Shown: piece by piece, positions 6,970 through 62,758 of the stretch
Numbering within the stretch: the first letter of the stretch is position 1
Layout: each line of letters opens with the position of its first letter
From: Anaerolineae bacterium
GTDB taxonomy: Bacteria > Chloroflexota > Anaerolineae > Aggregatilineales > UBA3940
Assembly: GCA_016926255.1 (NCBI GenBank)
Contig: JAFGOY010000012.1
Span: 14,172-78,171 of the forward strand
Direction of reading: 5' to 3'
DNA length: 64,000 nt
Program-made: the position numbers and the translations under genes
The notes under the pieces: generated by a model
What the model was told of the DNA's origin: nothing
The model's database searches: none
Seen by the model: the letters and a program-made list of their open reading frames with translations, nothing else

Positions 6970-7244
6970 TGCCTTTTCTCCTTCATTCTGTTGAAAAATT
7001 ACCTGTAATGCTGTTATTCTATCGCACATCGGTGTTCGCGCGATAGGGGGGCACCGCGATAACAAAAGGGAGGGTCTGGTTTATTGGTTATGGCCAGAAT
7101 ATCCCCCAGTAAATGGGGGGATAGGTGTTTCCTCGCCCTTAGACGAACTTGAACCCGAAACGGCACAAGCCGCCGAAACCCGGGGATAAGAGAATTTGCT
7201 TTTAACATTCCTTGTGCATTCTTTACGGTTTGATTTCCATCGCT

Positions 7245-8612
7245 TCAGACCACGGCGCGGCGGACGTGCCATTCGGTGTGGAGCTGGTGGGCATGGGCGA
7301 CACGCAGCAGCGTCGATGTGTCGCGCCCGACAAGCTGAACGCCAATCGGAAGGCCATCGTCGCTGAAACCGCAGGGCATCGAGAGGGCAGGGAGGCGGCT
7401 CAGGCTGAACGGGTAGGTGAAGCGGAGCAGTTCTGCCGCCGCCGAGACTCCTTCGCTGCCTTCTATTGCGTGGGAGATCACACCGGTGGCCGGGGTAACC
7501 AACACGTCGATCTCGTCGCGGAAGAGGGTGTGGAGCCTGCGAATCCAGGATCGCTCAAACTGGCGGGCGAGGGCATAGTCGGCGGCGCTGCGGGCGGCAC
7601 CCCCTTCGAGACGGGCGCGGACATCGGCACCGAAGCGCTCCGGGGCATTCGCCAGCCGGTCGCGGTGATAGGCGGCAGCATCGCCCATGCTGATCGTCGA
7701 CGCGGCCTGGTACGCCTGCCGGATATCGGGGAGGCTGATGTCAACCTGCGTCATCCGGGCATCGACGGTCAGTACGTCAATCGCGGAGCGCACCGCGCCG
7801 ACCAATTCCAGCGAGAGATCGGCCCAGATCGAATCGTCTTTCGGGACGCCGATACGCAATCCTGCGACCGGCTCGTCGATGGTCTGCGCGTGGGGGATGG
7901 CGGCTTCGATGGTCATTGCGTCGAGCATGAGAGCCACACCTTTGGCAGAATGAGCGAATGGGCCGACGGTATCGAGCGACCAACTCATCGGGATGACGCC
8001 CTGTGTGCTGACCTGCCCCAGCGCGGGACGGAGTCCGGTCAGGCCGCAGAAGGCGGCAGGCAGGCGAACCGATCCGCCGGTGTCGGTGCCGAGCGCACCG
8101 GGGCACATCGCTGCCGCGACCGCCGCTGCCGATCCGCCGCTCGATCCGCCGGGACTGAGGTCGAGATTCCAGGGATTGCGGGCCGGGCCGTAATGGGGGT
8201 TGACGTTCGTCGCGCCGACCGCAAACTCGTGAAGGTTGGTCTTGCCAATGATGATCGCCCCGGCTGCACGAAGCTGCTGGATCACAATTGCATCTTTCCG
8301 GGGGATGTTATCGGAGAAAAACTGGCTCCCTGCGGTGTTTGGGACACCGGCCACATCGATCAGGTCTTTGACGCCAATCGGGATGCCATGGAGCGGCCCC
8401 CAGTCTTCGCCGCGCCCGACTGCCGCCGTTGCCTGCTGCGCTTCCTCACGGGCGGTATCGGCCAGGACGGTGATAAAGGCGTTGATCTTCGGGTTCAGCT
8501 TCTCGATGCGCTCCAGGCTGACCTCGACGACTTCGAGCGGCGTTACTTCCCTTTTGTGGATCAGAGTCGAGATGTCTGCCAGCGATAATTTATCGATCCA
8601 GTCGGTGGTCAT
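7245..8612 (-). CDS. Amidase (amidase-signature family, GatA-like)
   Basis: The amidase signature GGSSGGSAAAVAA and the KDLIDVAG motif are present. I chose the start at ATG 8612 (MTTDWIDKLSLADI..) because of the GGGAGGAG RBS. The 458-aa plus-strand ORF 7212-8588 is an antisense shadow. Confidence 0.85.
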   Translation of the reverse strand: MTTDWIDKLSLADISTLIHKREVTPLEVVEVSLERIEKLNPKINAFITVLADTAREEAQQATAAVGRGEDWGPLHGIPIGVKDLIDVAGVPNTAGSQFFSDNIPRKDAIVIQQLRAAGAIIIGKTNLHEFAVGATNVNPHYGPARNPWNLDLSPGGSSGGSAAAVAAAMCPGALGTDTGGSVRLPAAFCGLTGLRPALGQVSTQGVIPMSWSLDTVGPFAHSAKGVALMLDAMTIEAAIPHAQTIDEPVAGLRIGVPKDDSIWADLSLELVGAVRSAIDVLTVDARMTQVDISLPDIRQAYQAASTISMGDAAAYHRDRLANAPERFGADVRARLEGGAARSAADYALARQFERSWIRRLHTLFRDEIDVLVTPATGVISHAIEGSEGVSAAAELLRFTYPFSLSRLPALSMPCGFSDDGLPIGVQLVGRDTSTLLRVAHAHQLHTEWHVRRAVV

Positions 8613-8751
8613 GGCTCCTCCCGTCGATGTGGTGTACCGGGTCTTTCGTGGTGCGATCTTAATTATACGTGGATTCGGCGGGGAGGATGAATTGTGATAC
8701 TGCTGGATAGTCAGGAAAACATGCAAAAAGCGCGTAGTGACAGGGAGAAGT

Positions 8752-9546
8752 ATGGATAGAGAAGACTATCAACTTATTGACGAGCAGGAGTTTCTGGAAA
8801 GGATGGCTGAGGGGAGGTCTTTCCGAAACATAGTTTTGAGGGATGCCGATCTCACGAAAACTGAAGCTGCCGATCTCACATTCAGGGACTGTGTATTCGA
8901 TGGAGTCGATTTGACAGGAATAAGCTGGATAGGGCTTAAGTGTGAATCTGTGAAGTTTAAATGCTGCGATCTGAGTGATGCCGATCTGGAAGACGCGGTC
9001 TTTGAAAATTGCAGCTTTTTCGATCCAAACCATCCTGAAGGATCAAGAGAATCGCGGCCTATTTATCCCCCAGGCGGTTGTAAATTCCTTCGAGCAAACC
9101 TCCATTCAGCAGCATTTACAAACTGTGATCTGTCCTTCTGTATTTTCGAAGGGGCAAACATGTTCCGTGTCACCATCAAGAATTCTAAAGCGACCTCTGC
9201 CAAATTTCATCGGGCCAGCTTCAACAACTCAGCCAGGCTCATCAATAACGTTATGCATTATGCTGATCTAAGAGGTGCTCAACTGTCAAAGTGCGATGTT
9301 TCCCTGACCGACTTTCAATGGGCAAATCTCGATGAAGCAAATTTTACAGAAGCCGTATTAGTCGGAAGCAACCTGGGCGGGACAACAGTTCGATATGCTA
9401 AATTTGAGAAGGCTGATCTGAGAGGTGCCGGTACAGCATCTTTTGATATTCGTACTATCGACTTACATGGTGCAAAAATATATGAAAGTCAGATGCGAAT
9501 ACTGCTGGAGAACTGCGGACTTGTTATCTTTCCGGACGGTCATTGA
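8752..9546 (+). CDS. Pentapeptide-repeat protein
   Basis: The sequence shows A(D/N)L..-type 5-residue periodicity throughout (ADLTKTEAADLTFRDCVFDGVDLTG..., ANLDEANFTEAVLVGSNLGG...). I prefer ATG 8752 with a GGGAGAAG RBS over the GTG at 8737. GC was about 45-48% in the lines I counted, far below the flanking genes. Confidence 0.8.
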   Translation: MDREDYQLIDEQEFLERMAEGRSFRNIVLRDADLTKTEAADLTFRDCVFDGVDLTGISWIGLKCESVKFKCCDLSDADLEDAVFENCSFFDPNHPEGSRESRPIYPPGGCKFLRANLHSAAFTNCDLSFCIFEGANMFRVTIKNSKATSAKFHRASFNNSARLINNVMHYADLRGAQLSKCDVSLTDFQWANLDEANFTEAVLVGSNLGGTTVRYAKFEKADLRGAGTASFDIRTIDLHGAKIYESQMRILLENCGLVIFPDGH

Positions 9547-9649
9547 GCCGGGGAAGCTTCAGAACACCGGACTGGAAAATGCCGACTCGCCGCTGCGCTT
9601 TAGTTGGGTTATCCTACAGGCAGGTATGAAACAGTACTGGAAAGAGTGA

Positions 9650-10462
9650 ATGACCCTTCTCCCGGAAAACGAACCCTGTACGGCAACCGATCCTGTCAGC
9701 TACACACTCGTTACACGTGACAGGCGTGAAGAAATCGACGCGAAGATCATCGACGAGCAGTTATTTACAATCTACGTCAATGGGCAGGAACTCACGACGA
9801 TGATGTGTACGCCCTGCAACCAGGAGGCGCTGGCACTGGGTTTCCTGGCCAACGAGGGCGTGATCGACTCGCTCGACGGGGTACAGTCATGGCGGCTGTG
9901 CAGCGCAGGGCGGAGCATCGACGTCTGGTTGAAGGCACCGACTACGAAGCCCCTCCGCCGGGTGATCCTCACCTCCGGGAGCGGGGGAAGCATCACGTTT
10001 GACGACCTGATCGCCACCCATGACCCGGTTGAGGCGGAGAGGGCGATTACGCCCGAACAGTTATGGTCGCTGATGGATTGCCTCTATCAGCAGGCGCACC
10101 TGCATCAGAATGCCGGGGGCGTGCATGTCACCGGATTGAGCGACGGCGAAAGGCTGGTGTTGACGGTCGAGGATGCCGGACGGCACAACACGTTTGACAA
10201 GCTGCGCGGGCTGGCACTGATGAACGAGATCGAGACGGCAGGGGGGATCATCCTGACGACCGGGCGGATCAGTTCGGAGATCGTCAACAAGGCGCGGGGG
10301 ATGGACATCCCGGTCGTCTGCTCGAAAGCGCCGCCGACTAACTTTTCGATCCGGCTGGCAGCGCGGTGGAACATGACGCTGATCGGCTGCGTGGATGAAC
10401 ACAGTATGAGAGTTTACACCCATTCGCGCCGGGTGGATTATCAGCCTTCGGCTGAAAAATAG
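9650..10462 (+). CDS. fdhD: Formate dehydrogenase accessory sulfurtransferase FdhD
   Basis: 270 aa with the FdhD hallmarks GGVHVTG...EDAGRHNTFDKLRG...SGRISSEIV.KA. The last 7 codons (YQPSAEK) are encoded by a copy of repeat family A. Confidence 0.85.
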   Translation: MTLLPENEPCTATDPVSYTLVTRDRREEIDAKIIDEQLFTIYVNGQELTTMMCTPCNQEALALGFLANEGVIDSLDGVQSWRLCSAGRSIDVWLKAPTTKPLRRVILTSGSGGSITFDDLIATHDPVEAERAITPEQLWSLMDCLYQQAHLHQNAGGVHVTGLSDGERLVLTVEDAGRHNTFDKLRGLALMNEIETAGGIILTTGRISSEIVNKARGMDIPVVCSKAPPTNFSIRLAARWNMTLIGCVDEHSMRVYTHSRRVDYQPSAEK

Positions 10463-10524
10463 GAGTATGCCCGGGGCTAAAGCCGCCGGGCTAAAGTGGT
10501 TCTGGGCGAGGGCAAGCCTCGCCC
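10438..10524. repeat. Composite repeat: family A copy 2 (10438-10466), family B (GCCCGGGGCTAAAGCCGCCGGGCTAAAGTGG, 10469-10499) and hairpin GGGCGAGG-GCAAG-CCTCGCCC (10504-10524)
   Basis: Read directly from the sequence. Family B recurs at 40717-40745 and 44687-44704. Confidence 0.65.
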
Positions 10525-10598
10525 CTGCGGCACCAGATCAGGTATGGCGTTACAGTATTAACAGAGCGCCAATCGCGAATAAGGGATGAGACGACCCG

Positions 10599-11156
10599 AT
10601 GACGAAAATCAATGATTATCTATGGCACCTGCCGCATGCAGCACTGCCCGACGATCCGCCCGACATTGCCGTGCTACAGCAGTCGTTCAACCTGCCGATT
10701 GCCGATTCGCTCGAAGGGCCGCTCGGCGAGTTGGGGTATCAACTCAAGAGCAACGACGTGATGGTCAAGCTCGACGAACGGCTCGACCGCACTGCCGATA
10801 CCTATTATGCGAATGTGCGGTTTATCGCCTATATGGAGTCGGACATCATTCTGCGGGTGCATTTCGAGCATACGGAGTGGGCGACGATCCTCGCCGACCA
10901 TGATGTGCATCAGTACTTCATCAACCTGGACCGGTTCAAGGTGCAGGACCCGCGCACCCAGGTGGTCGTTCCGGCGTGGTCGGGGCGGCTGCACTCGCGG
11001 ATGACCAACCGGCCCGGCGACCGGCTGCACCACGCGGGTGAAGATCAAATCTGGGCGTACAAGTCGGCGGAAGAACTCGAAGGGCAGATTCAGATGTTCC
11101 TGGAGAAGTTCGACCGGATGGGGCATGCGTGGCTTGCTGACCGGGCGACGCTCTAA
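10599..11156 (+). CDS. Hypothetical protein (185 aa)
   Basis: A long ORF with ordinary composition and a plausible RBS (AAGGGATGAG). I recognise no motif. The overlapping ORFs in other frames look like GC shadows. Confidence 0.55.
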   Translation: MTKINDYLWHLPHAALPDDPPDIAVLQQSFNLPIADSLEGPLGELGYQLKSNDVMVKLDERLDRTADTYYANVRFIAYMESDIILRVHFEHTEWATILADHDVHQYFINLDRFKVQDPRTQVVVPAWSGRLHSRMTNRPGDRLHHAGEDQIWAYKSAEELEGQIQMFLEKFDRMGHAWLADRATL

Positions 11157-37725: not shown

Positions 37726-38418
37726 ATGGCCCGAATTTTAGTTGTCGATGATTCCCCGACCGCGCGCGCATCGATCAGGCTGATGCTGGCCGACGAGGGC
37801 CACACGGTGATCGAAGCGGCCAGCGGGCAGGAGGCACTCGATCTGCTCTCCGGTAAACTGCCCGACCTGATCCTGCTCGATATCGTCATGCCGAATATTG
37901 ACGGCATCGAAACCTGCAGGCGCATCCGATCTGACCCGTTTATGACCCAACTACCAATCGTCTTTCTGACGGCGAGAGATCGCCCGCATGATATCGCCAA
38001 AGGGCTGGATGCCGGTGGGGATGATTTCGTCTCGAAAGCGGCGTTGAGCGTCGAACTGCTGGCCCGTGTGCGCGCGGTGCTGCGGCGGTTTGCCGGGGGT
38101 ACGCTCGATCCTTCAGCCGACCGGCTGGCGGTTGGCGGTCTTCTCCTGTACCTGTCACGCTTTGAGGTGCTGGTCGATGGGGTGAAGGTCGAACTGACAC
38201 CGGTCGATCACCGGCTGCTTTACTACCTGATGTCGCGGGCCGGACAGCCCGTACCGACCGATCAACTGCTGGAGCACGTGTGGGAATACGCCCCCGGAGA
38301 AGGCGATCCGAAAGTGGTGCATGTGGGGATCGCCCGGCTGCGCTCGAAAATCGAAGCGGCGGATGGGCCGCGTGTCATCCGCACCGTGCGCGGGCGCGGG
38401 TACATGATCGAAGGCTGA
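37726..38418 (+). CDS. OmpR/PhoB-family response regulator (REC plus winged-helix DNA binding), orphan
   Basis: REC motifs are DD...D (ILLDIVMP) and a conserved T/K. The C-terminal winged helix reads LTPVDHRLLYYLMSRAGQPVPTDQLLEHVW...IARLRSKIE...IRTVRGRGYMI. There is no adjacent kinase gene. Confidence 0.9.
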   Translation: MARILVVDDSPTARASIRLMLADEGHTVIEAASGQEALDLLSGKLPDLILLDIVMPNIDGIETCRRIRSDPFMTQLPIVFLTARDRPHDIAKGLDAGGDDFVSKAALSVELLARVRAVLRRFAGGTLDPSADRLAVGGLLLYLSRFEVLVDGVKVELTPVDHRLLYYLMSRAGQPVPTDQLLEHVWEYAPGEGDPKVVHVGIARLRSKIEAADGPRVIRTVRGRGYMIEG

Positions 38419-45786: not shown

Positions 45787-47655
45787 ATGACCGGCCCATC
45801 ATCATCAAAATCGAAGAGACTTCTGGCCGCCAGCCTTGCCGGAGCGGTGGCTGTGCTGATCGGGCTGGTGGGCTGCAAGGGCGGCGGCGAGGAATCGACA
45901 CCGACTCTGTATGCATTACCCAGCCTGGAAGCCAGCCTGATGCCCAGCGCGACGCTGGCACAGGCGCTCCCGACCGATACCGCCGTCCCCTCGCCCGTAC
46001 CGACTCTACCCGACTACAGTTGGTGCAGCCTCGACGCGGCATTCGTCGCCGATCTGACCGTCCCGGATTACACGACGATCGAACCGGCTACGCTGTTCAC
46101 GAAATCGTGGCGGATGCAGAACACGAGCACCTGTGACTGGGGGCCGGGGTTCGAGCTTCTATTTTACTGGGGCGATCAACTGGTGGGGCCGGTGGCAGTC
46201 GAGGTGCCGGAGACGGCGCAGGGCGAGATGGTCGATATTTCGGTGGATTTGCAGGCCCCGCTGGAGATCGGCGAGTACACGATGGTCTGGCAGCTCGTCT
46301 CGCCGGACGGCACCTGGTTCGGCACCGAGCCTTACCTGCGGATTGTCGTGCCCTGGACGGTGACGGTCACCCCGACCCCGACATCGCCCGAAGAATGCGT
46401 CTACAACGTCGCCTTTGTCGACGACGTGACGATCCCTGACAATATGCAAATCCTGGCCGGGGCGGAATTCACCAAAGTGTGGCGGATGATCAACACGAGC
46501 ACCTGTCACTGGGGCGAAGGCTTCGATCTGGTGTTCATCTCCGGCGATCCGCTCGGCGCGGACGAATCGAACCCGATTCCCGAAGTCAAGATGGGCGAGC
46601 AGTTCGATATACTGGTCGATATGCGCGCGCCGGAGGAGGGCGGGCTGTACCGGAGCATCTGGAAGATACAGAAGCCGGACGGCACGCAGTTCGGGTTGGA
46701 GCCGTTCGTAAGGATCGAGGTGGTGGAGCCGACGCGGACTCCGACTCCAGAAGCGACCGATACACCGACTCCAACAGTCGGGCCGGGGACACCGTCTCCG
46801 ACCCCACAGCCCACCCAGCGCCCGACACGGACTCCAACTGCCGGGCCGACGCCAACCGCGAGGCCGGTCGCTACGGCAGCGCCCCCGGCATCACATCCCG
46901 GCTACCCGGCGCTGGTGACGGGGATCACGGCGCATTCGCGGCAGATTTATCTCAACGGGCAAACGCTGGGGAACAAATCGACGGTGTTCTCGAAAGTGGG
47001 CGACAGCATCACCCACAGCCCGGCCTTCCTGAACCCGATCGGGCAGGGGCGCACCGATCTGCACGAGGAGTACGCTTACCTGCAGCCGGCGATCAACTGG
47101 TTCATGGGCACGGCACGGGTCGCCAACTCGTTCGACAACCCGTCGCTGGCCGAACGCTACGGCTGGACGAGCGCCGACATCCTCAACCCGGCGAGCGCCG
47201 AACCGGGCTGCGCGGGGAGATCGCCGCTGGTGTGTGAATATGAGCTGTCGCATCCTTCGGTGGCGCTGATCATGATCGGGACGAACGATTCAACAGGCCA
47301 TCTGTCGGTCGATGCGTTCCGGGCGAACTTGCAGCAGATAGTCGACATCTCGCTGGAATACGGGGTGATCCCGGTGTTGTATACGATCCCCTGGAACGCC
47401 TACGGGGACGTAAGCGGGTTGAACAACGTGATCGTCAGCACGGCGTGGGTGTATGACGTGCCGCTGATCGATTACTATTCGGCGATGGAGGCGCTGCCGA
47501 ATCACGGGGTGAGCGACGACGGGGTGCACCCATCGCTGCCGCCGGATGGGAACACGGCGAATTTCAGCGAGGAGAACGTGCAGTACGGGTACACGCTGCG
47601 GAACCTGATCAGTGTGCAGGCGCTCGATGCGATCTGGCGGCAGGTAATCTATTAA
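45787..47655 (+). CDS. Lipoprotein with two NBR1-like Ig (FW) domains, a PT-rich linker and a C-terminal SGNH/GDSL hydrolase domain
   Basis: Lipobox LIGLVGCKGG. The motif F(T)K(S/V)WRM.NTSTC.WG.GF.L.F occurs twice. SGNH blocks are FSKVGDSIT (block I), IMIGTND (block III) and DDGVHPS (block V). Confidence 0.8.
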   Translation: MTGPSSSKSKRLLAASLAGAVAVLIGLVGCKGGGEESTPTLYALPSLEASLMPSATLAQALPTDTAVPSPVPTLPDYSWCSLDAAFVADLTVPDYTTIEPATLFTKSWRMQNTSTCDWGPGFELLFYWGDQLVGPVAVEVPETAQGEMVDISVDLQAPLEIGEYTMVWQLVSPDGTWFGTEPYLRIVVPWTVTVTPTPTSPEECVYNVAFVDDVTIPDNMQILAGAEFTKVWRMINTSTCHWGEGFDLVFISGDPLGADESNPIPEVKMGEQFDILVDMRAPEEGGLYRSIWKIQKPDGTQFGLEPFVRIEVVEPTRTPTPEATDTPTPTVGPGTPSPTPQPTQRPTRTPTAGPTPTARPVATAAPPASHPGYPALVTGITAHSRQIYLNGQTLGNKSTVFSKVGDSITHSPAFLNPIGQGRTDLHEEYAYLQPAINWFMGTARVANSFDNPSLAERYGWTSADILNPASAEPGCAGRSPLVCEYELSHPSVALIMIGTNDSTGHLSVDAFRANLQQIVDISLEYGVIPVLYTIPWNAYGDVSGLNNVIVSTAWVYDVPLIDYYSAMEALPNHGVSDDGVHPSLPPDGNTANFSEENVQYGYTLRNLISVQALDAIWRQVIY

Positions 47656-47685
47656 CATCCAGGGCGGAGCCCCGATTATTCTTCA

Positions 47686-49086
47686 TTATTGCATCGCCTG
47701 ATGCTTGACGGCGTGGAGCACTTCGAGTGCTTCGAGGTTGCGGCGTACCATGCCATAGTGCATCCGATCCTCCAGAAAGACCGCCGAACCGAAATCGGCG
47801 GGCACCGTCAGGTGTGAGATGTTCAACTCGACGCCCTGGTTGGGAAGCTGGGAGGTCGTCTGCCAGAAATCCCAGAGCGGTACCTGCTTCTCGGCAGCCA
47901 CGCGGCGGATCGCTTCGTTCATTTCAGTGTGGCCACCGCCATGTAAATAAGGAACGGTGCTGAGAACCGGGATCACGCCCCGGCTGGCAGCGATGTCGAC
48001 AATACGGCTGACGCCTGCATAATAATCCTCTGCCCAGGTGGTCGATTCTTTCGGATAGGTGCGCACCATGATCAGGGCGATGGCAGGCTTGTAGCTGCGC
48101 AATTCGCATTCGAGGGGCGTTTCGCCGCGCCAGCAAACCGAGGGATCGGCCCAGGTGGGGTCGAGCAGGGCATTGACCACGTATCCGCCTTTCGCCGCAT
48201 AGCCGATCCGGCTGAACGACCCGGCGAAATCCCAGATCACTTCGTGAAGATAAATATAATCACCCAGGTAGAAGAACTGGTCGTCGAAGGCGATCAGGAA
48301 ATAAGGCGACTCGGCTTCACAGTCGCCGATCTTGCTGAATCGGTGGGGATTGTTGCCCAACTGCTGGCCGCGCTGGTAGATGGCGCGGGCATTCGGGCCG
48401 ATGCCGGTGATGGTCGCCGTGTAGGGCACGGCTGGCGCAGCCGAAACAGGCGCGGCGGCAGGGGCAGCGGGAGCCGGTGCGCTGGCAACGTCGACGGCAG
48501 AGGGAACGGGCACGGTGGAGAGATCGCCGCTGAGATCGGTAAAAACGGTGTAGACCCAGCCGGTCTTCCCCGCGTAGGTGATCAGGACCCAGGTGGACAA
48601 TTCATTGCGACCCTGCACGACGAGCGTCGTACTTACCGGGATGGTGCCGAGCAGGGTAGCGTCGAAATCGGGGGCGGACCGATAGCGCAGGTTGACGGTC
48701 GTTGTGGCGGTAACGGTGCTCCCGGCGACCGGCGGCGGTGCGGCAGGCGGGGCCGCTTCGCCGACGACCGGTACGGTGTTGAGATCGCCTTCGATCTCGC
48801 ACAGCCATCCGGCGACCCAGTTTTCGGTGCCAGGACCAAAGTTGACGAGCAGCCAGGCGGAATCGGTGCTGCGACCCAATACGGGCAGCGGCGTACGAGC
48901 GGAAACGCGCCCGATCGCGTCGTAGTGAGTGCCGGGGCCGGATCGGATGGTCAGCGAGGTGGTGGGGCTGGCAACGACGGCAGACTGATCGAGCGGGTGG
49001 GCGAAAGCACTCGACAGGGGCAGGGCGAGCAGGGCGAGACAGGCAATCAGTAAAGCGATCCGCCAGGGCGGTGATGTTCTGCGCAT
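47686..49086 (-). CDS. Secreted protein with two SH3b-like domains and a degenerate SGNH-like domain (Cys at the nucleophile position)
   Basis: A signal peptide is present. Two SH3b-like segments occur (LTIRSGPGT.YDAIGRV.. and VNLRYRSAPDFDA..). The C-terminal domain aligns with 45787-47655, but block I is FSKIGDCEA, block III is IMVRTY and block V is NISHLT. Confidence 0.75.
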   Translation of the reverse strand: MRRTSPPWRIALLIACLALLALPLSSAFAHPLDQSAVVASPTTSLTIRSGPGTHYDAIGRVSARTPLPVLGRSTDSAWLLVNFGPGTENWVAGWLCEIEGDLNTVPVVGEAAPPAAPPPVAGSTVTATTTVNLRYRSAPDFDATLLGTIPVSTTLVVQGRNELSTWVLITYAGKTGWVYTVFTDLSGDLSTVPVPSAVDVASAPAPAAPAAAPVSAAPAVPYTATITGIGPNARAIYQRGQQLGNNPHRFSKIGDCEAESPYFLIAFDDQFFYLGDYIYLHEVIWDFAGSFSRIGYAAKGGYVVNALLDPTWADPSVCWRGETPLECELRSYKPAIALIMVRTYPKESTTWAEDYYAGVSRIVDIAASRGVIPVLSTVPYLHGGGHTEMNEAIRRVAAEKQVPLWDFWQTTSQLPNQGVELNISHLTVPADFGSAVFLEDRMHYGMVRRNLEALEVLHAVKHQAMQ

Positions 49087-49355
49087 GAGCGATGATTCCT
49101 TCCAATTATGATCGGGTTTATTTTACTCATAAAGTGGGGATGGGCGCGAACGGATGCAGGGCGATCAATCTGCCACGGCAGCGATCACCCCCCTGTCGCA
49201 CGCATCGCGTGCGACTGTCCCCCCTTGGCAAAGGGGGACAACAAATATAAATATGTACCGGTCAGGAATTCAGTGCGGTGGAGGCAATCTGGCCAATCGG
49301 CTATAATCGCCCCGGTGCCCGCCCCGGCGGGCAGTATGAATCGAAGAGGAAATCA

Positions 49356-50528
49356 ATGAGCACAGAAGAACAATCGGTGGGGAAGGCAACGAAGCAGGAA
49401 CGGCTGATGCTGATCGGCGGCGGGGTAGTGTTCGCGGGGCTGGTGATCGGCATCGCGGTGCTGCTCGCCCCCAACCTGATCCGGCCCAAGATCGTGTTCC
49501 ACGCCTATGACGGGGACGTGTTCCGCTACAGCCCCGGACAGGTGCGTCCGCCGGAAGAAAACGAGATTCTGGAAAACTACCCGGCTCACTACGGCAAAGA
49601 TGGATTCCGCGTTCCGGCAATGGAAGCCAAAGAATACCCGATCATCGCGCTGGGTGATTCATATACTGAGGGCGGAAGCGTTCCCTGGGTGGACGTGGTC
49701 GCGGCGGAACTCGATACACCGGTTCAGAACCTGAGCTGGCGCGGCTACGGGCCGCTGGAATACGCGGCGATCATGGAAGAGTACGGCGGCGGCGATCACG
49801 ACTGGGTGCTGATCGGGTTTTTCGAGGGCAACGATTTGAGCAACATACACTCGTCAACCAATATCCTCGAAGAGACGGGATCGCTTAACCTGGAACGCGA
49901 ACTGTTCTCCACCGGAGAAGCCGAAGAGATGGAAGTGCTGCCCCCCGATCCGGACAAGTGGTATTTATTCCCACTGCGACACCTGGTGGGGGATCAGGTG
50001 TACGAACTGGCCTATATCCCCGATTATCTATGGGGTCTGAACGGGAACACGGAAGCCTACCGCCAGTCGCGGAACGTGGCGTTGCTGCGTGAATCGCTGC
50101 AGGAGATCAAGACTCTGGCGGGCGATGCCTGCGTGGGGCTGGTCTACATCCCCGACAAGCCGCATATCTATTTCCCGTACAGCGACCCGGATGGTAATCA
50201 ACAGTGGTTATTGAATGAAGGGGCAGTGGTAAGCCTCGATGCCGATGGCTGGCTCTCGATGGATGTGATCCCGCGCCCGGCCCCGCAGGAATTCGAAACG
50301 GTGGTGGGCAATCTCGACAACCAGCGGGATGTGATCGGCGAGGTTGCGGCGGAACTGGGCATTCACTTCATCGATCTGACCCCGGCGCTCCAGGCGGCGG
50401 TCGAGACGGGCGAGCCGACCTATTTCGCCTATGATTCGCACTGGAACGCACGCGGTCACGAGGTCGGGGGGGAGGCGGCTGCCGGGTACATCCGCAGCGT
50501 GGAAGGGTGCGGCGCGTATGAGCCTTAA
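49356..50528 (+). CDS. Membrane-anchored SGNH-like protein of the AlgX/AlgJ (DHHW-type) O-acetyltransferase/esterase class
   Basis: Start at ATG 49356 (AAGAGGAAA RBS), followed by an N-terminal TM helix. Block I is ALGDSYTEGG, block III is FFEGNDL, and the terminal motif is AYDSHWNARGHEV. Confidence 0.7.
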   Translation: MSTEEQSVGKATKQERLMLIGGGVVFAGLVIGIAVLLAPNLIRPKIVFHAYDGDVFRYSPGQVRPPEENEILENYPAHYGKDGFRVPAMEAKEYPIIALGDSYTEGGSVPWVDVVAAELDTPVQNLSWRGYGPLEYAAIMEEYGGGDHDWVLIGFFEGNDLSNIHSSTNILEETGSLNLERELFSTGEAEEMEVLPPDPDKWYLFPLRHLVGDQVYELAYIPDYLWGLNGNTEAYRQSRNVALLRESLQEIKTLAGDACVGLVYIPDKPHIYFPYSDPDGNQQWLLNEGAVVSLDADGWLSMDVIPRPAPQEFETVVGNLDNQRDVIGEVAAELGIHFIDLTPALQAAVETGEPTYFAYDSHWNARGHEVGGEAAAGYIRSVEGCGAYEP

Positions 50529-50691: not shown

Positions 50692-50729
50692 AAAATCACC
50701 TATCAACGCCCGATAGGTGATTATTTTTA
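50692..50729. terminator. Bidirectional terminator (AATCACCTATC-AACGCCC-GATAGGTGATT, flanked by an A-run and a T-run)
   Basis: An 11-bp perfect stem. ATTTTT follows on the plus strand and TTTTAAT follows on the minus strand. Confidence 0.75.
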
Positions 50730-50907
50730 TGTCTATTCAATTTACGCGTGATTGTTACGCGTGACCGGTTATGCATCGCGCCGTGAAGCGGAACTCCTTC
50801 CGCCGGGACGCAGCCGCCAGGTTCAATGAAGCACAGCCGGGCGGCTACCTGAATGCACGGCAGGTCGGATGCAAATACCGTTTCTCAGACCGGGACGGGA
50901 ATACTAC

Positions 50908-51183
50908 CTAGAAATCTTCGTCTTCCCAATCCATGTCTTCGTCGTCGTCATCGTCGAGATCGTCGAAGTCGTCGGCGGCGTCGAATTCGTCGTAGTCGTC
51001 ATAGTCATCGAGTTCATCGACATCTTCGTCATCTTCGTCGTACTCGAAGTCAAGAACGACCGGCCCCAATTCGATGACTTCCAGATACTCGCCGCAGTGA
51101 GGGCAAACGACTTTCTGCCCAAGCCGGGGAGGACTGGAAAAGGTGACACGATCATTACAGTACGGGCACTTAGCGTCTGACAT
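50908..51183 (-). CDS. LysW-like zinc-ribbon protein with a long acidic C-terminal tail (91 aa)
   Basis: KCPYCNDRVTFSSPPRLGQKVVCPHCGEYLEVIELGPVVLD fits the LysW/ArgW amino-group-carrier ribbon (two CxxC knuckles followed by LEV). It is followed by ~45 residues that are mostly D/E with scattered aromatics, ending MDWEDEDF. AGGAGA RBS. Confidence 0.7.
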   Translation of the reverse strand: MSDAKCPYCNDRVTFSSPPRLGQKVVCPHCGEYLEVIELGPVVLDFEYDEDDEDVDELDDYDDYDEFDAADDFDDLDDDDDEDMDWEDEDF

Positions 51184-51427
51184 AAACTGTCTCCTATATA
51201 CCTGACGCAGGTAGTATATTTGTGCAAATTATAGTGCCAGTCCGGTCAAGTACAAATATTGATCCATAGAACTTTTGTTTTGTCCGACAACCGTTTCCGG
51301 CGATCTGCCTCGATGGGATAATCAGGGAGACCGTTCTTACTGCCCTTTTGGGTAATGGACGGAACCGGGGGCGTATCTCTACAATTACGATACATTAGCA
51401 ATGAATAGTGCTGATTGACGGGAAATA

Positions 51428-52216
51428 ATGGAACTTCTAAACACCCTCCACGCGATAAATCAGGAGGTCGTCCAACTGGCGGCAGTTGGGCATTACAAGC
51501 AGGCTTTAACCCGGCTGGCGGTCGCTGCCTGTGATCTCCTGAACGGCGAAACCAGCGCGATCTGGCTGCTGGAGGATGGGTGGCTGCTGCTGCATGCGAC
51601 CGATGCCGACCAATCACACGCGGACAGGGTTCCGCTGTACGAAAGCCTGGTAGGGGAATCGGTTCTGGCCCGCGCACCGGTACAATCGGACGATGTGCGG
51701 ATCGACAAGCGGCTGCATCACCCCGAACTGGCGGCTCAATACGGCTGGCTGAGGGCGTTGATCGTGCCGATTGTGACCGAGCCGGATGGCGAGCCAATCG
51801 GGGCAATCAATGTGTACTGTCGTGAAAATCCCTGCGATGAAACGACTTCCGAGGAACAGATGCAAATCCTGACCCTGCTGGCCGACCTCGCGGCGATGGT
51901 GATCGTCAGTGCGACGCGCTACCAGGTGGGGGAAGCGGCAGAGACGCCGAGCCGCTCGTACGTCCTGCTCGGCGACCTGGCGACCAGTTTGCTGGTCAGG
52001 CTGCGGGTCAAAGCCGGGGCGATCCCGGTCCGGATCGAGGGGATACAGGATAAATGCAGTGCGGCGGTGGTTGCCGACGACTATCTGTCCGAAAACCTGG
52101 CGGCTATTCAACAAAACATACGCGAGTCGATGCAGGTGGTCGGCGAACTGCTCTCGCTGATGCGGATGCTATCGAGCGGGGAGACGGCCATACCGGTCGG
52201 GCCGGAACACGGATAG
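51428..52216 (+). CDS. GAF domain protein with a C-terminal helical region
   Basis: The N-terminal ~160 aa show a GAF-like pattern (LL.GETSAIWLLEDG.L.L.A......VPL.ESLVG.....P....D......H.....G...AL.VPI......IGAINVY). No kinase or output domain recognised. Confidence 0.6.
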   Translation: MELLNTLHAINQEVVQLAAVGHYKQALTRLAVAACDLLNGETSAIWLLEDGWLLLHATDADQSHADRVPLYESLVGESVLARAPVQSDDVRIDKRLHHPELAAQYGWLRALIVPIVTEPDGEPIGAINVYCRENPCDETTSEEQMQILTLLADLAAMVIVSATRYQVGEAAETPSRSYVLLGDLATSLLVRLRVKAGAIPVRIEGIQDKCSAAVVADDYLSENLAAIQQNIRESMQVVGELLSLMRMLSSGETAIPVGPEHG

Positions 52217-52465: not shown

Positions 52466-53104
52466 ATGCAGAAGACCCGCCATGATATTGTTGATTATCT
52501 ACGCGAACACGGGGCGGCGACGGTCGATGAATTATGCTCAGCGCTTGGTGATCTCACCTCGGTGACGGTGCGCCATCACCTGGATATTTTACAAAAGGAA
52601 GGGCTGGTCGATCCGCCGGAACCACAGCGCCGGGCCGCGCCGGGCCGTCCGAAGTATGTATACGAACTGTCCAGACAGGCCGATGCGCTATATCCAAATA
52701 ACCTGATACCCTTCACTTTCTTCCTGCTGGAAGAACTGCGGTTCGTGATGGGGCCGCGCCAGCTTGAAGTACTGCTCGACGGAATCGCCCGGCGAATGGC
52801 CGCCGAATACAAGCCAGACAGCGATGAGGTGTCGTTCGGGCAGAAACTGGACCATGTCGTCGCCCATTTGAATACCCAGGGGTACGAGGCGGCCTGGGAA
52901 CCCCAGCAAGATTCCTATTCGCTGGTTCTTCACAACTGCCCATATTGGACGGTCGCTAAGGCGCAGCCGGGACTCTGTCTTTTCGAGAAGCGCTACCTGG
53001 GGCACCTGCTTGGGATTTCCCCGCAGCTTGAATCGACGAGAGCAGGCGGGGCCAGCAAATGCCTCGCGCGGATACCGAACAGCCTGATCGAGTACTTGCT
53101 GTAG
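52466..53104 (+). CDS. SufR-like winged-helix (ArsR/DeoR-type) transcriptional regulator, paralog 1
   Basis: N-terminal wHTH R..I..YL...G..TV.EL...L.....TVR.HLD.L..EGLV......R...GRP...Y.L. C-terminal Cys pattern NCPY..(x12)..C..(x~27)..C. It resembles the regulator at 59537-60226. Confidence 0.65.
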   Translation: MQKTRHDIVDYLREHGAATVDELCSALGDLTSVTVRHHLDILQKEGLVDPPEPQRRAAPGRPKYVYELSRQADALYPNNLIPFTFFLLEELRFVMGPRQLEVLLDGIARRMAAEYKPDSDEVSFGQKLDHVVAHLNTQGYEAAWEPQQDSYSLVLHNCPYWTVAKAQPGLCLFEKRYLGHLLGISPQLESTRAGGASKCLARIPNSLIEYLL

Positions 53105-53133
53105 GTAATGACCGGTCATTGATCATGGCAGAT

Positions 53134-53157
53134 GGGGCATTGATGATGCCCCTTTTT
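53134..53157 (+). terminator. Rho-independent terminator (GGGGCAT-TGATG-ATGCCCC-TTTTT)
   Basis: Read directly, 30 nt after the stop at 53104. Confidence 0.75.
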
Positions 53158-53222
53158 GGTTAGATGTAGAAATGGCACGGAGTGGTTGAAAAGCGTGAGG
53201 AACCGGCGGACAGGCAACTGAA

Positions 53223-53251
53223 TTGACAACCCCCAGGTGGGTCGATACAAT
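53223..53251 (+). promoter_or_regulatory. Sigma70-like promoter (TTGACA, 17-nt spacer, TACAAT) for the HesB/IscA gene
   Basis: Hexamers at 53223-53228 and 53246-53251, 62 nt upstream of the ATG. Confidence 0.55.
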
Positions 53252-53313
53252 CTGGGCGACGCACGAGAAACGATCATGGTAACGCATACCAAGAACAAGG
53301 AGCCACAATCAGA

Positions 53314-53688
53314 ATGAGCGATCAGGCACAGGCGGAAGGCACAAAAGCCGCCACCACAGAGCAGATTATCACAGTCACCCCGCAAGCTATCGAAAAGATC
53401 AACGGGCTGCTAGAAGAGAAAAAACTGGAAGGGCACTGCCTGCGCGTGTTTGTCGTGAGTGGCGGATGTTCGGGTCTTCAATACGGGATGGCTTTTGAAC
53501 CCCAGCCGCGCGAAGAAGACACGGTGGTCAATGCGAACGGCTTACAGGTGCTCGTCGACCCGTTCAGCCTGCAATATATGTCAGGCAGCACGGTAGACTA
53601 TGTCGAGACGGAGGCAATGGCCGGGTTCCGGATCGACAACCCGAACTACACTCCCTCGTGCAGCTGCAGCGGGGGCGGCTGCGGGTAG
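53314..53688 (+). CDS. HesB/IscA/ErpA-family iron-sulfur cluster insertion protein
   Basis: Contains LRVFVVSGGCSGLQYGM...VDYVE...GFRIDNPN and a Cys-rich C-terminus CSCSGGGCG. AAGGAG RBS. Confidence 0.85.
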   Translation: MSDQAQAEGTKAATTEQIITVTPQAIEKINGLLEEKKLEGHCLRVFVVSGGCSGLQYGMAFEPQPREEDTVVNANGLQVLVDPFSLQYMSGSTVDYVETEAMAGFRIDNPNYTPSCSCSGGGCG

Positions 53689-60513: not shown

Positions 60514-61284
60514 ATGACCGTAGCTTTAGAGATTAGAAACCTGCATGTCAACGTCGAAGATAAGCCGATCCTCAAAGGCGTGAATCTGACCGTCCGGCAG
60601 GGCGAAACCCACGCGCTGATGGGGCCGAACGGATCCGGCAAGAGCACGCTGGCTTATTCGTTGATGGGCCACCCGAATTACGAAGTCACCGGCGGGCAGA
60701 TATTGCTTGACGGAGTCGACCTGCTTGAACTGGAGGCCGATGCCCGCAGCCACCTGGGGCTATTTCTCGCTTTCCAGTACCCGGTAGCGATTCCCGGCGT
60801 ATCGCTGGCGAACTTCCTGCGACACGCTGTGAACGCGCATCGCAAGGCCGTCGATCCCGACGACGGGGGAATGCCGATCCCGGAGTTCCGCAAGATGTTG
60901 AAGGCCAAGATGGACCTGCTGGAAATGGATCACAGTTTCGCGGGGCGCTACCTGAACGACGGCTTCTCCGGCGGCGAGAAGAAGCGGGCGGAAATCCTCC
61001 AGCTTGCCACGCTCGAACCGAAGATCGCGGTGCTTGACGAAACCGACTCCGGACTCGACATCGACGCACTGCGGATTGTCTCGGAGGGGGTCAATGCGCT
61101 GGCCGGGCCTGATCTGGGTGTGCTGGTGATCACCCACTACCAGCGGATATTGAACTACGTCAAGCCGGAGTATGTCCACGTTATGTTCGACGGCCAGATC
61201 GCCGAGAGCGGCGGTCCTGAACTTGCGCTGCGTCTGGAAGAGCAGGGTTACGACTGGCTGCGCGAGAAAAACGGAAGCAGTTAG
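60514..61284 (+). CDS. sufC: Fe-S cluster assembly ATPase SufC
   Basis: Contains [28 protein letters not shown] and [12 protein letters not shown]. Length and N-terminus are typical of SufC. Confidence 0.95.
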
Positions 61285-61342
61285 CAATCGACAATTGGCT
61301 TTTGCCAGTTGCTACCGCACCTTCATATTGGAGTAGAACCTC

Positions 61343-62758
61343 ATGCCTGATGAAGCAAAACAGCTAGAAGGCATCAAAGATAGTTACGCCGACAAGTACG
61401 GCTTTCATGTTCGTGAAAACTACGTGTTCAGGGCACGCCGGGGGCTGAACCGCGAGATCGTCGAGGAAATATCGTGGATGAAGGGCGAACCCGACTGGAT
61501 GCGCAACATCCGGCTGAAGGCGCTCGAACACTTCTTTGAGCGCCCGATGCCCAACTGGGGAGCCGATCTCAGCGAGATCGATTTCGACAATATCTTCTAC
61601 TTCGTCCGTGCGACCGAAGAACAGACCGCCGACTGGGACATGGTTCCCGACGAGATCAAGGAAACCTTCGACAAGCTGGGCATTCCCGAAGCCGAGCGCA
61701 AGTTCCTGGCGGGTGCGGGTGCGCAGTACGAGTCGGAGGTGATTTACCATAAAATCCGTGAAGACCTTGCGGCCCAGGGCGTGGTGTTCCTCAGTATGGA
61801 CGAGGGACTCAAACAACATCCCGACCTGGTGAAGGAATATTTCACCAAGATCATCCCCTATAACGACAACAAGTTCGCCGCGCTGAATACCGCCGTCTGG
61901 TCAGGTGGGTCGTTCATCTACGTTCCGCCGGGCGTCGAATTGACGATGCCGCTCCAGGCTTATTTCCGCATCAATACGATGAATATGGGCCAGTTCGAGC
62001 GGACGCTGATCATCGTCGACGAGGGCGCGTTCGTCCACTACGTCGAGGGCTGCACCGCGCCGATCTATTCGAGCGATAGCCTGCATGCGGCGGTCGTGGA
62101 GATCATCGTCAAGGAAGGGGCACGCTGCCGCTACTCGACCATCCAGAACTGGTCGAACAACGTGTACAACCTGGTCACTAAGCGGGCGGTCGCCTATAAA
62201 AATGCGACGATGGAATGGGTCGACGGGAACATCGGCAGTAAGATCACGATGAAATATCCCGCCGTCCACCTGATGGAACCCGGCGCGCACGGCGAAGTAT
62301 TATCGATTGCCTTTGCGGGCAAAGGACAGATACAGGACGCAGGGGCGAAGATCGTCCATGCCGCGCCATATACTACGAGTAAGGTCACCAGCAAATCGAT
62401 CAGCATTGACGGCGGGCAGGCGAGTTATCGCGGCCTGCTGAAAGTCTACGAGGGAGCGCATCACACAAAGAGCAACGTGGTGTGTGACGCGCTGCTCCTC
62501 GACGACAAGTCGCGCTCGGACACTTACCCCTATATCGAGATCGACGAGGCAGACGTGACCATCGGCCACGAGGCGTCGGTCAGCAAGGTGGGGGAGGATC
62601 AGCTTTTCTACCTGATGAGCCGGGGCCTGACCGAAGAACAGGCCAACGCGATGGTAGTCAATGGGTTTATCGAGCCGCTGGTCAAAGAACTGCCGATGGA
62701 ATACGCGATGGAACTCAACCGCCTGATCCAGATTCAGATGGAAGGCAGTATCGGATAG
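61343..62758 (+). CDS. sufB: Fe-S cluster assembly scaffold SufB
   Basis: 471 aa with [11 protein letters not shown] and the beta-helix core typical of SufB. Confidence 0.95.

Follow-up and report, generated by a model that had tools for sequence, protein, structure and literature searches.

A small gene on the minus strand of contig JAFGOY010000012.1 (Anaerolineae bacterium, assembly GCA_016926255.1) encodes a protein of 91 residues in which a LysW-like zinc-ribbon domain is joined to a long, Asp/Glu-rich C-terminal tail. The gene lies at 50908–51183 of the stretch of DNA analyzed here (64,000 nucleotides, positions 14,172–78,171 of the contig's forward strand; hereafter the window), and is real and conserved. 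Its ribbon is, by profile and by structural model, a genuine LysW-like domain with a likeness to LysW that goes far beyond chance. In the established carrier mechanism the γ-carboxyl of the C-terminal Glu of an EDWGE-type motif holds α-aminoadipate or glutamate. The window protein departs from each of the definitions of a canonical carrier that we tested and, on that sequence evidence, is not an amino-group carrier of the LysW/ArgW lysine-arginine pathway; it belongs to a large, separate, and widespread paralogous family of acid-tailed LysW-like ribbons. We tentatively propose, with somewhat less than even confidence, that the protein is a non-enzymatic docking ribbon with a nucleic-acid-like tail that would bind basic surfaces of partner proteins. 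The ribbon itself is already known, because the domain family is present in Pfam; what appears to be new from the comparisons below is the acid-tailed subfamily, its non-carrier terminus, and its gene partnerships. Full-text literature searches returned no description of the subfamily, of its terminus, of those partnerships, or of a link between LysW, an aminomutase, and ATP-grasp ligases.

The Gene Encodes a LysW-type Ribbon with a Polyanionic Tail

The translation of the open reading frame (ORF) is MSDAKCPYCNDRVTFSSPPRLGQKVVCPHCGEYLEVIELGPVVLD-FEYDEDDEDVDELDDYDDYDEFDAADDFDDLDDDDDEDMDWEDEDF, with a net charge of −34 over the whole protein. An independent Logan contig encodes an identical protein, with the same neighbors as in the window (a GAF-domain protein, an ArsR/SufR-like helix-turn-helix [HTH] protein, an IscA-type protein, an FHA protein, and a large protein whose only match is a faint one to C25 peptidases). 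Homologs were recovered, and across five orthologs of the window gene the ratio of nonsynonymous to synonymous substitution rates (dN/dS) is 0.04–0.2.

Residues 1–45 are predicted to form a four-cysteine, zinc-binding ribbon laid out as CPYC, 17 residues, CPHC, and then LEV....P..LD, with the cysteines at positions 6, 9, 27, and 30. The match to the Pfam family PF21344 (Zn_ribbon_LysW) spans residues 4–45 (model positions 1–42 of 46) and scores 37.6 bits (E = 1.7e-9) against a gathering cut-off of 27. A profile built from 11 family ribbons matches Thermus thermophilus LysW (3wwl) with E = 6e-13, and also matches the Thermococcus and Sulfolobus LysW structures. In an AlphaFold model built on the family alignment, the predicted local distance difference test (pLDDT) score exceeds 90 over residues 1–40, and in a Foldseek search of the PDB each of the top six matches of this model is a LysW chain (target TM-scores 0.70–0.91, root-mean-square deviations 0.7–2.8 Å). 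The family alignment shows no variation in the four cysteines or in G22, L34, E35, P41, and L44. The residue that directly follows the L-D motif is usually Trp in the family and is Phe in the window protein.

The last 46 residues comprise 24 Asp and 8 Glu (32 acidic residues, 70%), 8 Phe, Tyr, or Trp, and no Lys, Arg, or His, and they end in Phe. In the AlphaFold model this segment has a pLDDT of approximately 53 and no predicted secondary structure. Its dN/dS falls within the same range of 0.04–0.2 and is similar to that of the ribbon, at synonymous divergence (dS) from approximately 0.7 to saturation; the substitutions seen among the five orthologs are Asp/Glu swaps or swaps among Phe, Tyr, Leu, and Met, and all insertions and deletions are in frame. 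Acidic tails with isolated Trp, Phe, or Tyr residues recur in members whose ribbons share only 36%–60% identity. We conclude from these alignments that the tail is under purifying selection, as a long Asp/Glu-rich segment that is predicted to be disordered. At the DNA level the tail shows an imperfect 27-nt, nine-codon periodicity as well as a 9-nt repeat. A fixed aromatic periodicity, or conserved amphipathic register, was considered and rejected: the window protein has a run at a spacing of three (L58, Y61, Y64, F67, A70, F73, L76), and other clades have spacings of three to seven.

This picture largely bears out an earlier interpretation of the region made from the letters and an ORF list alone (the sequence-only reading). 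It had placed the ORF correctly, quoting a sequence that agrees with the ORF list and with the minus strand; it had recognized a LysW-like ribbon, which the Pfam score, the 3wwl profile match, and the Foldseek result now support; and it had described a long acidic tail with scattered aromatics and a terminal Phe, as composition confirms. It had also named simple low-complexity drift of the tail as a finding that would count against it. Drift is not borne out, because dN/dS is low in the tail and distant homologs keep acidic tails with spaced aromatics. The interval that it had assigned to the feature, 50730–51183, stands for the part occupied by the coding sequence; positions 50730–50907 are noncoding and correspond to a conserved 3′ untranslated region (UTR).

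The Window Protein Is Distinct from the Canonical Amino-Group Carriers

Hidden Markov model searches place the ribbon in the LysW-family domain PF21344, but the protein falls below the curated cut-offs of both models of the carrier itself, scoring 28.5 bits against 53.2 for TIGR01206 and 18.3 bits against 75 for NF041070. It ends ...DWEDEDF, with neither an EDWGE motif nor a terminal Glu, and its 91 residues, 46 of them in the tail, compare with 53–56 for the solved LysW chains. Domain scans of 34 large ORFs in the window found no ATP-grasp, amino-acid-kinase, semialdehyde-dehydrogenase, class-III aminotransferase, or M20 domain. On both counts the sequence-only reading was right: it had set the protein apart from standard LysW and had reported that the window carries no lysX/Y/Z carrier-pathway genes.

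The same holds for relatives. Among the four recurrent neighbor families at 91 family loci there is no lysX, lysY, lysZ, lysJ, or lysK, and the only ATP-grasp neighbors at these loci are Ddl-like rather than of the RimK/LysX type. A genome scan supplied a positive control (locus L019) in a metagenome-assembled genome (MAG) of an uncultured Anaerolineaceae bacterium, where a 56-residue LysW ending ...EVEEDWGE is followed directly by lysX, lysY, lysZ, lysJ, and lysK (6001–11149 of the locus); its LysX is a RimK-type ATP-grasp protein with the LysX pre-ATP-grasp domain. The canonical carrier pathway therefore occurs within the class Anaerolineae, and since an ordinary carrier sits there in an ordinary operon, the window protein is something else.

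The termini of relatives tell against a carrier as well. The pooled tails of 91 dereplicated acid-tailed members are 40% Asp, 24% Glu, and 16% Trp, Tyr, and Phe together. Of these 91 members, 29 end in an aromatic residue, where shuffled tails predict 16 (P = 0.0004), and 12 end in Glu, where tail composition predicts 22. Judged by these tail sequences, the family actively avoids a carrier-type terminus.

A Widespread Family of Acid-Tailed Ribbons

A word-indexed search recovered 21 proteins of 74–97 residues, all with PF21344 and an acidic tail of approximately 29–52 residues (mostly approximately 45) that contains spaced Trp, Phe, Tyr, or Leu; source databases name several of the relatives “lysine biosynthesis protein LysW” or “alpha-aminoadipate carrier protein LysW”. 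An exhaustive HMMER search, run with the ribbon profile on 1.84 billion cluster representatives, gave 2464 matches at E <= 1e-3, a total that probably takes in canonical LysW proteins, and 471 at E <= 1e-10. The best 150 of the 2464 are single-ribbon proteins with acidic tails of 13–116 residues, together with double- and triple-ribbon proteins; none of the single-ribbon proteins among these 150 has an EDWGE ending. The description of the window protein as an “orphan” in the sequence-only reading therefore fails in the family sense, given the size of this match set and the 91 dereplicated acid-tailed single-ribbon members collected.

A scan of GTDB genomes found the acid-tailed form in the Chloroflexota class Anaerolineae, with matches in an Anaerolineae MAG (93% identity to the window ribbon), Caldilineaceae, Caldilinea, Litorilinea, and Ardenticatenaceae; conservation of the protein reaches at least the families Caldilineaceae and Ardenticatenaceae as well as further lineages of the class. 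Scanning metagenomes with the motif P[LVI]ELDWAY gave 80 further loci. One of the contigs with a family member, from the Caldilineaceae MAG BC1.69 (JAWKOU010000001.1; locus L012), is listed as a single piece of 14.28 Mb, an unusually large bacterial replicon if the assembly is correct.

Many of the tandem-ribbon proteins (P0025–P0065) carry two or three LysW-like ribbons in 115–212 residues, mostly with Lys/Arg-rich linkers and tails, i.e. of the opposite charge to the tail of the window protein. Another tandem-ribbon protein, P0073, ends DRDWGE, and P0145 has seven ribbons in 620 residues.

A phage or defense origin was also considered and set aside: tblastn against 50,697 phage records gave no match, a viral-contig scan with the family motif gave no relative, and PHROGs returned only generic CxxC noise (E >= 2e-4); no PADLOC defense search was made.

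Relatives Have Recurrent Gene Neighbors

All ORFs within 4 kb of the family gene were clustered in the 91 loci, which dereplicate at 80% protein identity to 65 groups. The commonest neighbor is an OmpR-type regulator encoded on the same strand and ending approximately 120–170 bp upstream in 20 of the 48 groups with enough upstream sequence (loci from Ardenticatenaceae [L017] and L010, L042, L046, L055, L058, L062, L070, L072, L089, L104, and L108, among others). Regulator and acid-tail gene form a conserved two-gene unit, and the genes beyond vary between loci. In alignment with an ordinary OmpR-type regulator from the window, the phospho-acceptor position of these upstream regulators is occupied by Ala, Ser, His, or Val, and the conserved Lys is replaced by Arg. 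With a receiver domain that lacks the acceptor Asp, such a regulator would need an input other than phosphorylation.

Downstream, and again on the same strand, a lysine 2,3-aminomutase and/or one or two Ddl-like ATP-grasp ligases are found in 14 of the 42 groups with enough downstream sequence (loci L040, L042, L045, L046, L048–L050, L054, L057, L076, L079, L080, and L100). The operon order is LysW-like gene, AblA-type aminomutase, and one or two ligases; in L100 the ligase is fused to an S-adenosylmethionine-dependent methyltransferase. The aminomutase passes the AblA equivalog cut-off (TIGR03820, 547.6 bits against 525.4). The ligases are not cell-wall Ddl enzymes, as they score far below all true Ddl cut-offs. 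A GNAT (AblB) gene was not seen at these loci. This gene arrangement suggests a β-lysine ligation chemistry that is as yet unknown. Some loci carry both the upstream regulator and the downstream AblA/ATP-grasp set.

A gene of the YigZ/IMPACT family, for which we know of no established bacterial function, follows downstream after 11–99 bp in each of the eight loci or groups examined in Caldilineales genomes (L002–L009, L012–L016, and L018, from Caldilineaceae, Caldilinea, and Litorilinea), where YigZ matches TIGR00257 above the cut-off. It also lies downstream in two metagenome loci, at 101 bp in L034 and at 1464 bp in L032, and overall is present in 7 of the 42 dereplicated groups. At least one of the four recurrent neighbors occurs in 30 of the 36 groups with both flanks; the remaining six, which include the window, have none. 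The sequence-only reading had suggested that the protein could be a nucleic-acid mimic, a chaperone-like or metal-buffering tail, or a repurposed carrier; taken together, the neighborhoods of the relatives favor partner binding or ATP-grasp modification over metal buffering.

The Window Copy and Its Transcript

tblastn searches of the window with YigZ, AblA, ATP-grasp, and atypical-regulator queries found no homolog except an ordinary OmpR-type regulator at 37726–38418, 13 kb away. With a normal acceptor Asp and only 31%–34% identity, this was rejected as a counterpart of the family's atypical neighbor.

The divergent GAF-domain gene named in the sequence-only reading is present (Table 1). It is common only to the close clade of the window and is absent in the nearest out-clade relatives (P0159, P0083, and P0168), which lie on short contigs with unrelated neighbors. 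The GAF adjacency was accordingly rejected as a functional clue; since these relatives lack the neighbor, the pairing is probably mere local synteny.

Approximately 85 nt upstream of the gene are almost invariant across the five orthologous loci, comprising TTGTAC, a spacer, TATAAT, the palindrome TACCTGCGTCAGGTA, and the ribosome-binding site, in contrast to the coding region, where dS is approximately 0.7 to >1, near synonymous saturation. The putative promoter block is invariant in the five aligned loci; a consensus scan chose a weaker neighboring match. The AGGAGA ribosome-binding site that had been noted earlier is found 6 nt upstream of the ATG, and the palindrome could serve as an operator or form a hairpin in the 5′ UTR that acts on translation.

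Between stop codon and terminator lies a conserved and apparently structured 3′ untranslated element, which is conserved far more than the synonymous sites of the gene and contains the invariant blocks CCTGCCGTGCAT and TCCCGGCGGAAGGAGTTCCGCTTCACGGCG, as well as GCGGAAGGAGTTCCGC (window and downstream regions of L011, L026, L027, and L028). RNAalifold predicts a consensus fold of 54 pairs (−44 kcal/mol) in which four pairs show compensatory changes, and the single-sequence folding z-score is −2.1. Rfam searches of the flanks in E-value mode matched no family, giving only a chance microRNA match at E = 0.34. The element could be a novel cis-regulatory RNA or a small RNA derived from the 3′ UTR. 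A 26-codon ORF in this region, with its ATG in GCGCGATGCAT, was rejected, its frame being broken by a 13-nt insertion/deletion in L026–L028. The region also has a direct repeat on the plus strand, TTACGCGTGA-TTG-TTACGCGTGA (50744–50766), which is present in the window and imperfect in L011, and which lies within or next to the 13-nt stretch deleted in L026–L028.

The hairpin terminator likely marks the 3′ end of a monocistronic transcript. Conserved promoter/5′ block, 3′ element, and terminator together make the gene look monocistronic, strongly expressed, and post-transcriptionally regulated; the window gene thus probably gives a well-expressed small acidic protein, and as a gene it is well supported.

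Table 1. Features of the acid-tailed gene and its flanks (window coordinates)
Feature	Position	Strand	Basis and remarks
Hairpin terminator, 11 bp	50694–50722		Shared with the convergent SGNH-hydrolase gene; kept in L011, L027, and L028
Conserved, apparently structured 3′ untranslated element, ~150 nt	50745–50893	minus	Between stop codon and terminator
Coding sequence of the 91-residue acid-tailed LysW-like protein	50908–51183	minus	ORF list and sequence; stop codon 50908–50910
Disordered (predicted) polyanionic tail, residues 46–91	50911–51048	minus	Composition, pLDDT, purifying selection; ends ...DMDWEDEDF
Zinc-ribbon globular domain (predicted LysW fold), residues 1–45	51049–51183	minus	PF21344, profile, AlphaFold, Foldseek
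Shine-Dalgarno sequence AGGAGA	51190–51195	minus	6 nt before ATG; near-invariant in five orthologous loci
Perfect 15-nt palindrome TACCTGCGTCAGGTA	51199–51213	minus	Between −10 box and ribosome-binding site; invariant in five loci
Putative sigma-70-type promoter	51228–51255	minus	−35 TTGTAC (51250–51255), 16-nt spacer, −10 TATAAT (51228–51233)
GAF-domain protein, divergent neighbor	51428–52216	divergent from acid-tailed gene	Domain scan

The wider surroundings include a split suf region. A SufR-like ArsR/DeoR HTH protein with a Cys-rich C terminus and an IscA/HesB-type Fe-S assembly protein are encoded at 52466–53688 (1.3–2.5 kb from the gene), and a SufC-like ABC ATPase and SufB/D at 60514–62758 (9–11 kb from it). 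On the other side, at 45787–50528, the products of three adjacent genes are GDSL/SGNH hydrolases that look secreted and combine Thr/Pro-rich linkers with SH3b, NBR1-Ig-like, or AlgX-like parts; the genes may form a cluster for modification of cell-envelope polysaccharides or acyl groups.

A Proposed Docking Ribbon with a Polyanionic Tail, and Its Alternatives

In the mechanism that we tentatively favor, the protein would be small, cytoplasmic, and of two parts, i.e. a LysW-type ribbon and a permanently disordered polyanion in which aromatic or hydrophobic residues stand singly and which closes with a C-terminal Phe, and would have no enzymatic activity of its own. The ribbon would serve as the docking module, as the globular domain of LysW does for the LysW enzymes. 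The tail would act as a nucleic-acid-like or substrate-like polyanion, with carboxylates standing in for phosphates and with the spaced aromatics and the aromatic C terminus as anchor points; by occupying the basic surface of a partner it would sequester, compete with, or chaperone that partner. Mechanistic models for such a tail are SSB, phage T7 gp2.5 and gp4, and the δ subunit of Firmicutes RNA polymerase, whose acidic tails serve as DNA mimics or hooks for partners. Candidate partners in the relatives are the products of the genes next door, the most attractive class being the Asp-less OmpR-type regulators with their basic winged-helix DNA-binding domain. The window gene would be uncoupled from such neighbors and form a transcription unit of its own, whose promoter is strong and highly conserved and whose UTRs are conserved on both the 5′ and the 3′ side. 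Several points weigh against this mechanism. The window copy has none of the recurrent neighbor families, and the GAF neighbor that it does have is not conserved outside the immediate clade. Aromatic spacing differs between clades, so there is no single binding register. Zinc binding by the ribbon and disorder of the tail are predictions. The family is, moreover, also linked to ATP-grasp ligases, which fits a role as substrate or carrier at least as naturally.

That link underlies the principal alternative, to which we give a clearly minor but appreciable probability: the protein would be a substrate or repurposed carrier of ATP-grasp ligases, which would amidate side-chain carboxylates of the tail or the C-terminal carboxylate in an ATP-dependent manner, e.g. 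with β-lysine made by AblA. The outcome could be a reversible, charge-changing modification or a tethered intermediate (compare LysX-LysW, RimK-S6, and tubulin-TTL/TTLL), and enzymes acting on the window copy would sit elsewhere in the genome. Canonical LysW is itself an ATP-grasp substrate (PDB 3vpb, 5k2m), and the downstream aminomutase and ligases of one-third of the groups (14 of 42), the former above the AblA cut-off and the latter well below those of true Ddl, speak for such a role. Yet most family loci lack these enzymes, as does the window by tblastn and by Pfam scans of the 34 ORFs; the ligases are of the Ddl type, not the RimK/LysX type; the C-terminal residue varies even at ligase-linked loci; and the AblA/ligase operon, rather than modifying the tail, might just as well be a target under the control of the pair of regulator and acid-tail protein. 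A combination of the two ideas, which we regard as unlikely, would make the tail a regulatory ligand (DNA mimic or ionic-strength sensor) of the Asp-less OmpR-type regulators that is also written on by the Ddl-like ligases with AblA β-lysine, and so part of an undescribed signaling/modification module. Such a module would amount to a charge code on a protein tail, comparable to the RimK system or to the code on tubulin tails, and would be an evolutionary sister of the LysW carrier mechanism, with the window gene as a free-standing member.

The acidity of the tail might alternatively serve as a cation buffer or an ionic-strength or osmotic sensor, with the tail binding Mg2+, Ca2+, K+, or transition metals, or shifting its interactions with salt, and the ribbon binding zinc. 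A tail that is 70% Asp/Glu with no basic residue would suit this role. AblA, which makes β-lysine for compatible solutes in other organisms, is a frequent neighbor of relatives, and in the clade of the window SufR-like and IscA-type genes lie near, with sufC and sufB/D farther off. However, simple buffering explains neither the conserved, selected aromatics and the enrichment of C-terminal aromatics nor the strongly conserved ribbon, and the suf neighborhood was found only in the closely related clade; we consider this explanation improbable. That the protein is after all a true LysW/ArgW carrier for a lysXYZJK pathway elsewhere in the genome, its tail an elongated linker, is very improbable: the homology of the ribbon and the database names of relatives speak for it, but both curated cut-offs are missed, the EDWGE motif and terminal Glu are absent, with terminal Glu depleted across the family, lysX/Y/Z/J/K are missing from the four recurrent neighbor families at the 91 loci, and the same class has a normal 56-residue LysW within its operon. 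Hardly credible is a spurious ORF, or a tail of decaying low-complexity sequence without function. Although the imperfect 9-nt and 27-nt repeat of the tail DNA could expand by slippage, both halves of the gene have a dN/dS far below 1, the Pfam match is above the gathering cut-off, and the protein is conserved across Caldilineaceae, Ardenticatenaceae, and other Anaerolineae, as are its promoter and ribosome-binding site in the aligned loci. The remaining weight goes to something else.

Implications

The label “LysW” is almost certainly wrong for the window protein and for the family, and would lead to false lysine-pathway calls in metabolic reconstructions of Chloroflexota. To our knowledge, the only role known for the LysW fold until now is that of a covalent carrier. 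That a large sister family keeps the ribbon and exchanges the carrier end for a polyanion of 15–115 residues points to an unexplored use of this fold, and the repeated pairing of this family with a phosphorylation-blind regulator, with a β-lysine/ATP-grasp set, or with YigZ/IMPACT provides testable links, including a lead on how aspartate-less OmpR regulators might be controlled. For the window gene alone the gain is more modest than for the family, namely a small acidic protein with no assignable partner in the window.

Comparison with Known Systems

The closest structural relatives are LysW and ArgW themselves (T. thermophilus 3wwl, 3wwn, and 5eio; Sulfolobus tokodaii 3vpb; Thermococcus kodakarensis 5k2m), which share the four-cysteine zinc-ribbon fold, the signature CxxC, 17 residues (16 in T. 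thermophilus LysW), CxxC, LEV....P.xL[DE], and an acidic, disordered, Trp-containing C-terminal extension after the globular domain. In contrast, the extension of LysW has approximately 10 residues and that of the window protein 46; the latter lacks EDWGE and a substrate-carrying terminal Glu and fails TIGR01206 and NF041070, and in the surveyed loci acid-tailed genes never lie beside lysX/Y/Z/J/K.

Other ATP-grasp ligases also act on acidic tails, as in ribosomal protein S6 (RimK) and the α-tubulin C terminus ...EEY (TTL/TTLL). By analogy, the acidic C-terminal tails of the family often end in an aromatic residue, and many members lie beside ATP-grasp ligases; these are Ddl-like rather than RimK- or TTL-like, however, and the window copy has no ligase nearby. 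DNA gyrase is inhibited by YacG, a very small zinc-finger protein with four cysteines, whose acidic tail contains Trp and blocks the site at which gyrase binds DNA. The window protein resembles it in being a tiny four-cysteine protein with an acidic, Trp-containing tail, an analogy of design, as the sequences do not match significantly (PF03884 scores 15 bits, with the cut-off at 25.5) and the window tail is much longer and more acidic. The δ subunit (RpoE) of Firmicutes RNA polymerase combines a small globular N-terminal domain with a long, disordered, Asp/Glu-rich tail that acts as a nucleic-acid mimic on a nucleic-acid-binding partner. The architecture of a globular domain followed by a long acidic disordered tail is comparable, although the domain of δ has a HARE-HTH fold where the window protein has a zinc ribbon, and for the latter a link to RNA polymerase is an analogy.

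SSB and phage T7 gp2.5 and gp4 have an acidic C-terminal run that ends in an essential aromatic or hydrophobic residue (e.g. ...DDDIPF), and this end plugs into basic or hydrophobic pockets of partners and competes with single-stranded DNA. Those tails comprise 8–25 residues on OB-fold DNA-binding proteins, whereas the tail of the window protein makes up half its length, and DNA binding is not known for its globular part. The analogy lies in the terminus, since the window protein, too, closes an acidic run with an aromatic residue (...DWEDEDF), and C-terminal aromatics are enriched in its family.

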